Origin: Saccostrea echinata
Lineage: Eukaryota
Assembly (NCBI RefSeq): GCF_033153115.1
Contig: NW_026889751.1
Span: forward strand, 8,804,001-8,868,000
Length of the DNA: 64,000 bases
Direction of reading: 5' to 3'
Positions within the stretch are counted from its first letter, which is position 1. Each line of letters starts with the position of its first letter. A model generated the notes under the pieces. The model saw only the letters and a program-made list of their open reading frames with translations. It was not told where the DNA came from and ran no database searches. Both the position numbers and the translations under genes were made by a program. Positions 59,021 through 59,746 of the stretch are shown one piece after another.

Positions 59021-59746
59021 TTAATCAGTCACATTATAGCAATCTTTCTGAACAGTTTCCAACATTTCCTTAATGATGGCCAAACTCAACAGATTACCTG
59101 GATGAATTCCATCATAATTTAGTGCCAAATTTACAGAATGTCTCGAATTTTTGCCTTTTACTTTACGTGATCGAAAATAGAACTTACTGACTCTGATGGT
59201 ATTTTGAGAATTTTCTGAATTGAGTTTTTGAATTTCAGTGTTCAACAAAATAATCTGTTCAGTGGCTTGTTTATCTTCATCCTTAAATTGATCAGGATTT
59301 GTGTGCCCCTTAAATTCATTCCATTGACTGATTGATAATAACGGACAGTCTATAATTTTCAGTGTAGCCCAAGGGCTATAGCGATTCACAATCTCATATG
59401 CACGTTTATATTGGTCAACCAAGTCACTGACAACTTGTTCAGTGTCTGGATTTTTCAAATTTACAAACTTGCCTGTCTTTTGTGTAATATCACAGGTACC
59501 TGACCATAAAAAGTATACAATATTTCTGTGATATCTCAAAGCTGACTCAATATGAGTTTCTATTTGGTCAACTAAAAACTTAGTTTTAGCACCTGGGTGA
59601 CACCAAAGTTCCAATGGAAATTTACCTTGGTAATTATTTTTAATTGTAAACCCTTTACTGTCGGACACTAGGATTGGTTGTTTAGATTTTAAACCTTGAA
59701 GACAAGTAGGGTTACTTACAAATTTTTCTAATTTGTGAAAACTCAT
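59021..59746 (-). CDS. SGNH/GDSL-family hydrolase (esterase/lipase-like), 241 aa, between PBS and gag
   Basis: Block I ILVSDSKG, block II HPGA, block III WSGTCDI and block V YDGIHP occur in the right order; ATG start, no interruptions, same strand as gag-pol. Confidence 0.85.
   Translation of the reverse strand: MSFHKLEKFVSNPTCLQGLKSKQPILVSDSKGFTIKNNYQGKFPLELWCHPGAKTKFLVDQIETHIESALRYHRNIVYFLWSGTCDITQKTGKFVNLKNPDTEQVVSDLVDQYKRAYEIVNRYSPWATLKIIDCPLLSISQWNEFKGHTNPDQFKDEDKQATEQIILLNTEIQKLNSENSQNTIRVSKFYFRSRKVKGKNSRHSVNLALNYDGIHPGNLLSLAIIKEMLETVQKDCYNVTD

Follow-up and report, generated by a model that had tools for sequence, protein, structure and literature searches.

A predicted SGNH-fold protein encoded 5′ of gag in a Saccostrea echinata Gypsy element belongs to an accessory gene family carried by four classes of transposon

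The window analysed here is a stretch of 64,000 nucleotides of the Saccostrea echinata genome (contig NW_026889751.1, positions 8,804,001 to 8,868,000), and within it lies a complete Gypsy retrotransposon of about 10.2 kb (51202-61435), all of whose features are on the minus strand. The two LTRs, each of 1101 nt and bounded by TG...CA, occupy 60335..61435 (5′) and 51202..52302 (3′) and differ by one mismatch; a 4-bp target site duplication (TSD), ATAA, is found on both outer sides. The primer binding site (PBS; 60314..60331) was named by locating tRNA-Lys(CTT) genes in the host genome: its first 9 nt are a perfect complement of the 3′ end of this tRNA plus CCA, the remainder matching imperfectly. 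The leader (59747..60313) is followed by an uninterrupted ORF running from ATG to TAA and encoding 241 aa (59021..59746), here called ORF0; eight upstream ATGs, one of them inside the PBS, lie between the LTR and ORF0. A spacer of 570 nt (58451..59020), also with eight ATGs, separates ORF0 from gag and ends in a splice-acceptor-like TTTTGTTCAG that abuts the gag ATG; other families do not conserve it, and no conserved acceptor was seen across 33 gag starts. Gag (57185..58450; 421 aa) is PNMA-like, matching PF14893 above cut-off (E 1.7e-11). Pol lies in the -1 frame and a heptamer, A AAA AAC, which we take to be a slippery site, is present at the end of gag (57188..57194); together these suggest that pol is expressed by frameshifting. 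Pol itself (52581..57212; 1543 codons, stop to stop) has protease, reverse transcriptase (RT), RNase H and integrase in Gypsy order, the protease being weakly matched in Pfam (E 0.039) and the other three above cut-offs, and the polypurine tract GGGGGGAAATG is at 52303..52313. The element thus has the TG...CA LTRs, TSD, tRNA PBS, polypurine tract and gag followed by PR-RT-RH-IN of a Ty3/Gypsy element, and the uninterrupted ORF between PBS and gag, inside near-identical LTRs, is as the earlier note on this DNA had described it.

Three more genomic copies of the element are 99.7-99.9% identical to it. Two of these have full-length LTRs, with 0-1 mismatches between them and 4-bp TSDs of their own, and the LTRs of the third are internally shortened. 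From the near-identical LTRs and copies it follows that this Gypsy family is very young. The nearest named proteins are from Mytilus and, for one sister element, from several bivalves. Two further loci (L121 and L145) each contain 2.7 kb from the interior of pol, 96% identical to the element of the window; this fragment has the same boundaries in both and is embedded in another repeated unit.

Outside the element, the window contains exons (750-47700) of what looks like a large gene, or a cluster of genes, of extracellular-matrix type: VWA domains are repeated, EGF-like exons and one NIDO exon are present, and an exon for Somatomedin-B is read from the other strand. Sequences resembling tRNA-Ser occur within dispersed repeats at 4047-4133, 45453-45536 and 50208-50299, and these are probably tRNA-derived SINEs. 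To the right of the Gypsy element there are exon-like pieces of a gene or transposon (62436-63900). Elsewhere in the genome (G000:C54:40109953-40125857) units of about 1.22 kb are repeated in tandem, each of them with a tRNA-Lys(CTT) 3′ motif.

The ORF0 protein has the motifs SDS (S30), PG (G52), GTCD (C85) and DGIHP (D212, H215), the SGNH blocks at the positions claimed for them in the earlier note. Sequence searches with the protein itself gave no Pfam match at E<=1 and no PDB match at E<=10; histone H2B, ulilysin and bacteriocin hits from Pfam and PDB searches with ORF0 or with small profiles were rejected as noise. An AlphaFold model built from a 46-sequence alignment has a pLDDT of 95.4 and a pTM of 0.91 (the single-sequence model, at pLDDT 39, was uninformative). 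The top PDB matches to this model in Foldseek are SGNH-type hydrolases and esterases (best E 4.4e-7), sialate O-acetylesterases being found among them alongside many other SGNH enzymes. When the model was compared with 48,161 chains by VIA-align, the best match was a GDSL lipase (Z 18.4, rmsd 2.9, 176 aligned residues), with PAF-AH at Z 16.5 and the OSK domain of Oskar at Z 15.3; active SGNH enzymes score Z 17-19.7 in the structure comparisons, above Oskar OSK. Furthermore, when a profile of the ORF0 family is aligned with a GDSL-fold scaffold, GTCD falls on GTND (E 0.0021). The SGNH fold takes up residues 18-239 of the 241 in the model and leaves no room for an N-terminal coiled coil. The protein is basic, with a Lys/Arg hairpin at 190-206 immediately before block V, and a hydropathy scan found no signal peptide or transmembrane segment (maximum 19-residue value 0.94). 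On the model, ORF0 is a Cys variant of the SGNH fold and not a canonical SGNH member, the Asn of block III being replaced.

These features are those of a family. A phmmer search with ORF0 gave 491 clusters (50% identity) at E<=0.001, and most of the best 150 are stand-alone proteins of 215-290 aa; 114 matches of this length among the best 150 were aligned with the protein of the window. In the resulting 115 rows the Ser-Asp-His triad is kept at S30 in 114, D212 in 112 and H215 in 112, and it is complete in 109 of the 111 rows that align at all five sites. G52 of block II is kept in 104. Position 85 is Cys in 112 rows and Asn in three, and therefore the Cys is a trait of the whole family. Basic residues are frequent at four positions (K31 in 108 rows, K90 in 102, R194 in 76 and K195 in 84), the family medians are a pI of 9.4 and a net charge of +5 at 190-206, and only three rows have a 19-residue hydropathy above 1.6. 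Both the intact triad and the Cys for Asn replacement had been noted beforehand from the single protein.

In Pfam and in mussel gene annotation this family is unnamed or fused to neighbouring genes. Lipase_GDSL and GDSL_2 of Pfam give weak matches (E<=0.1) to 22 and 11 of the 114 relatives, the best at 1.3e-4. The nearest clusters in the ESM Atlas (0.98, 0.95 and 0.95) are unnamed and, where taxa are known, come mostly from Mollusca or Annelida; GDSL clusters are next, at 0.93. No relative was found in a scan of viral contigs. Among Mytilus gene models, P0009 (precomputed annotation PF27108) and P0158 join the family to the PHD of a LINE, P0124 joins it to a gag-like piece (E 2e-7) and P0162 to a Helitron-like protein; these are predicted models, and the fusions may be joins made in annotation. 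In two divergent relatives, P0054 and P0113, block I is degenerate and the tails consist of long acidic repeats; these are possibly inactive derivatives. At another locus (L194:551-2067) the family member is followed by a second ORF, in which a Cys-rich finger is combined with a stretch like a coiled coil; this ORF resembles a CR1-type ORF1 and has no Pfam match.

A search of the oyster's own genome returned at least 83 matches from 100 candidates, and 71 distinct loci with flanking DNA could be sorted by context. Gypsy gag or pol lies downstream of ORF0 at 50 of them. At eight, ORF0 follows an ORF for a 935-aa transposase-like protein of a hAT-like element; at seven it directly precedes ORF2 of a LINE, in the slot of ORF1; at two it follows the Rep/helicase of a Helitron; and four fall in no assigned class. 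Retroelements thus account for 57 of the 67 assigned loci. At none of the 71 is ORF0 directly downstream of Gypsy gag or pol, and no host copy with introns turned up in this set. ORF0 is a portable accessory gene common to Gypsy, LINE, hAT-like and Helitron elements, a wider distribution than the earlier note had envisaged.

The hAT-like unit is about 9.3 kb long and has internal tandem repeats. The three copies inspected have the imperfect ends TAG...CTA in common, and each is flanked by a 7-bp TSD of its own sequence. The TSD of hAT elements is canonically 8 bp, and 7 bp in the hATw subgroup. Its 935-aa protein (L071:1771-4578, in G000:C47), which is widespread in bivalves, has an invariant D, CxxH and E and a near-invariant second D across 21 rows; it found no match in Pfam or PDB profile searches, and all of its hAT leads in the ESM Atlas are under 0.9. 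Going by the motifs and these sub-0.9 leads, the carrier is probably an under-annotated hAT subgroup. The Helitron is young, two copies being 99.5% identical across 10.6 kb with the ORF included. It encodes (L074:408-8198, in G000:C20) a Rep/helicase (Helitron_like_N E 1e-23, PIF1 E 4.6e-17), a weakly matched OTU-like domain and a divergent SGNH ORF, and short inverted repeats and a hairpin are found at its ends, which we take to be Helentron-like. The triad is intact in four hAT-like carriers (L042, L046, L055 and L070) and in a Helitron carrier (L065).

The LINE copies have a common 5′ end about 300 nt before ORF0, and in three loci ORF2 begins about 35 nt after it. The LINE carriers are of APE type, with RVT_1 matched in L064, PHD and EEP in L192 and PHD in L193. 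Their ORF2s (L064; L192:2694-4115; L193:3781-4464) were also seen to have a hydrophobic segment and a motif LLLSG.IE.NPGP, presumably 2A-like, ahead of the PHD and endonuclease. That a LINE had merely inserted beside a hAT-borne ORF0 was considered and ruled out, as the LINE copies have their own common 5′ end; between the LINE and the hAT-like unit, similarity is limited to the ORF (65%) and one patch of 47 nt. In metagenomic DNA, two of three loci have homologues 47-50% identical to ORF0 of the window directly before an ORF2 with PHD or PHD-endonuclease, and the closest relatives of known context outside the oyster genome include such LINE-borne ones.

Within the Gypsies, PBS-ORF0-gag-pol is a conserved order: it recurs in families that have two types of PBS and share no more than 31-45% pol identity with the element of the window. 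The gags of some ORF0 carriers (L035, L066 and L043) were seen to have an N-terminal helix-hairpin-helix or SAP-like motif. The further suggestion that these elements form a little-described Gypsy lineage does not stand. ORF0 was sought with two profiles in 36 stretches around relatives of the RT, taken as representatives of at least 150 RT matches, and 27 stretches with gag have no trace of it; these include the closest gag-bearing RT relatives, at 70-76% RT identity. Five others have ORF0 or remnants, two are fragments without gag and two are neighbouring parts of one copy in which ORF0 has been displaced by an insertion. The leaders that do without ORF0 are 1.6-1.8 kb long in nine of the 11 measured, and a sense ATG ORF of 60 aa is absent from all 11.

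On the RT tree the carriers are scattered: their monophyly is rejected (AU p 3.7e-43; 9 vs 15 rows), and at least three changes of ORF0 state are forced, on a quick tree that leaves out four short rows and has a fragment as one of its "none" rows. The hypothesis that ORF0 descended vertically together with the RT is also rejected, with moderate support only (AU p 0.0275 and 0.004). In a combined tree of ORF0 proteins, four rows of which are partial domains from gene models, a single clade of Gypsy-borne proteins is rejected (AU 1.2e-64), as is one of LINE-borne proteins (AU 2.3e-125), and ORF0 of the window groups with proteins borne by LINEs and Helitrons in clades that have support (95/91, 97/95). 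Over ORF0-gag, one decayed copy (L034) shares 70% identity with the element of the window, against 93% over pol, a contrast that would fit swapping of modules.

The dN/dS comparison among copies called for in the earlier note was made. Between intact families the ratio for ORF0 is about 0.10-0.24: it is 0.10 for the window and L034 (dS 2.1), 0.13 for L040/L058, 0.14 for L036/L085 and 0.21-0.24 in hAT-like carriers (dS 0.5-0.56, with 0.21 at dS 0.56), and within the L037 family it ranges from 0.05 to 0.44. In seven pairs with decayed or barely diverged copies it is 0.63-1.28. For the deep pairs dS is near saturation; a Fisher test was significant for six low-ratio pairs, which, having been chosen, are illustrative only. 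Within a given pair, ORF0 has diverged more quickly than gag, RT and integrase (for L036/L037, identity is 59% for ORF0, 83% for gag and 91% for RT). At the level of codon comparison, purifying selection on ORF0 between families is shown.

An accessory ORF between PBS and gag is not in itself new, being found in plant Ogre/Tat elements and, as orfC, in walleye dermal sarcoma virus; we know of no description of these as SGNH enzymes. Transposon-borne SGNH esterases are likewise already known, and the comparisons that follow are with the accessible parts of the reports concerned. One close parallel is the type IV ORF1p of CR1/L2/RTEX LINEs, a basic transposon protein with an SGNH fold and S-D-H triad (ZfL2-1, PDB 4c1b; PMC3905857, PMC4120745). 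The ORF0 family is similarly SGNH-fold, S-D-H, basic and transposon-encoded, and fills the ORF1 slot of a LINE, but it is stand-alone without a coiled coil, has Cys for the block III Asn, and is also carried by LTR and DNA transposons. The transposon-specific His191 of ZfL2-1 corresponds to Trp81 in ORF0, each being four residues before the block III Asn or Cys, and by this spacing the position is Trp in 103 of the 115 family rows. Neither the family profile nor the best 50 matches of the fold searches reached 4c1b; this structure is domain-swapped, which makes its absence weak evidence.

Vesta LTR retrotransposons and Terminons of bdelloid rotifers carry a GDSL ORF3 (PMC5408684). As in ORF0 carriers, the Vesta SGNH ORF is separate, has intact catalytic residues and belongs to an env-less LTR element, and the pool of genes is shared between retroelement classes; by the descriptions, ORF3 differs in following gag and pol, in keeping S, G, N and H and in being restricted to retroelements, whereas ORF0 is 5′ of gag, Cys-type and also present in DNA transposons. 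The texim genes of fish Helitrons (PMC4021074) likewise show a patchy SGNH gene in a Helitron, with germ-line (testis) expression proposed to aid transposition, but they have introns, canonical blocks and, as reported there, no link to reverse transcriptase, while the ORF0 family is intronless and mostly in retroelements. Amphibian Ngaro elements (PMC9210276) have an extra SGNH hydrolase ORF in a retrotransposon, its function unproven like that of ORF0; by description it follows the tyrosine recombinase in an element of DIRS order. The words ORF, esterase and hydrolase do not occur in the accessible text of a mollusc LTR survey (PMC6238403), nor do SGNH, GDSL, esterase or hydrolase in two Gypsy papers (PMC12440569, PMC13524379). 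No SGNH ORF 5′ of a Gypsy gag, no family with Cys in block III and no cut-and-paste SGNH carrier was found in the accessible literature; prior cataloguing in subscription journals, Repbase Reports, Dfam, GyDB or supplements is possible. ORF0 is a variant on a known theme, set apart by its Cys type, its slot 5′ of gag and its cut-and-paste carrier.

As to what the protein does, our belief is evenly divided over the reading that we nevertheless prefer, in which ORF0 would be a portable cytosolic serine deacylase that acts in trans and weakens a host restriction or signalling step, rather than a part of a particle. By analogy with ZfL2-1, for residue roles as far as they are described in the accessible text of PMC3905857, S30 would attack an acyl ester or thioester, activated by H215 and D212, with G52 and C85 lining the oxyanion hole. 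K31, K90, R194, K195 and the basic 190-206 hairpin may bind an anionic substrate, for which a phospholipid head group, an acylated nucleotide or an acylated protein at a membrane are candidates. Since the replaced Asn is the defining oxyanion residue of block III, turnover may be low. The benefit would lie in weakening a restriction or signalling step that all transposons meet in the germ line, a step reached by exclusion: a host-side benefit is probable because the carriers have no capsid, RNP or entry step in common. A gene acting in trans could be lost and later regained, recombination bringing it back into the long leader that precedes gag. Of the options raised in the earlier note, that of a deacylating protein which counters host defence thus survives.

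The main rival to a host-directed deacylase is a role like that of ZfL2-1, in which a basic, slow esterase would bind anionic phospholipids and hold the element's RNP or particle at membranes, perhaps so that vesicles could take it from cell to cell. DNA transposons would then have the gene because it helps their own trafficking in a comparable way, or because they captured it secondarily. We regard this as unlikely, but as the strongest of the alternatives. ORF0 occupies the LINE ORF1 slot in the oyster's own genome and on two metagenome contigs, its surface is basic, and the preponderance of retroelements among the assigned loci fits a membrane or RNP role; the ZfL2-1 esterase is itself reported to bind phosphoinositides and liposomes with low turnover (PMC3905857). 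Yet ORF0 is a free protein of about 240 aa, in which neither a coiled coil nor a fused domain is present to link it with RNA or Gag, known esterase ORF1ps generally having coiled coils in front, and 27 related gag-bearing Gypsies do without it. It is also under selection in the hAT-like element, which has no RNP, and selection in an element of cut-and-paste type argues against models confined to particles or RNPs. The same carriers bear on the proposal of the earlier note that the protein serves release or entry in place of env; it would then be a receptor-binding or receptor-destroying esterase. Sialate O-acetylesterases do rank near the top of the structural matches, but many other SGNH enzymes rank there too; the hydropathy scan gives no segment for secretion or membrane insertion, ORF0 is 5′ of gag and never directly downstream of gag or pol, and family members with an intact triad are found in a cut-and-paste transposon and a Helitron, neither of which makes a particle. 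The env-substitute reading is thus not supported, and we rate it the most improbable of all.

The OSK domain of Oskar binds RNA, and the structural match to it, together with the basic hairpin, the high pI and the LINE ORF1 slot, would suit a protein that mainly binds or chaperones nucleic acid on an SGNH scaffold, with catalysis secondary. This is improbable, as Oskar has lost hydrolytic activity whereas the ORF0 family has kept S-D-H almost throughout, and the active enzymes score higher than Oskar. Still less credible is a passenger, a captured fragment of a host gene useless to the elements. Many Gypsy families do manage without ORF0, and some pairs of copies evolve neutrally; but 67 of the 71 loci are inside transposons with no intron-bearing host copy among the 71, reading frames have stayed open, with purifying selection, in families that share 30-70% identity, and the clusters number at least 491, mostly stand-alone proteins among the best 150. 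The passenger reading is already largely refuted.

Published accounts leave it open why SGNH esterases are carried by transposons. The accessible text of the ZfL2-1 paper leaves the substrate of the esterase unknown (PMC3905857), and the rotifer, Helitron and Ngaro reports, as far as accessible, show no function for their SGNH proteins (PMC5408684, PMC4021074, PMC9210276). The ORF0 family makes the question testable, offering one small, soluble and confidently modelled protein in four transposon classes, with natural pairs of close Gypsy relatives that have and lack it; and it shows that accessory genes cross between RNA and DNA transposons. More tentatively than any reading above save those we call improbable or worse, the large, un-annotated family of Cys-type SGNH proteins (at least 491 clusters) might be a universal transposon accessory in molluscs, and probably in annelids as well. 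It would be a deacylase directed against host defence, which LTR, LINE, cut-and-paste and rolling-circle elements exchange with one another and which disables a restriction that the host imposes on all of them. If this is true, the substrate would reveal an acylation-dependent anti-transposon pathway in the animal germ line.
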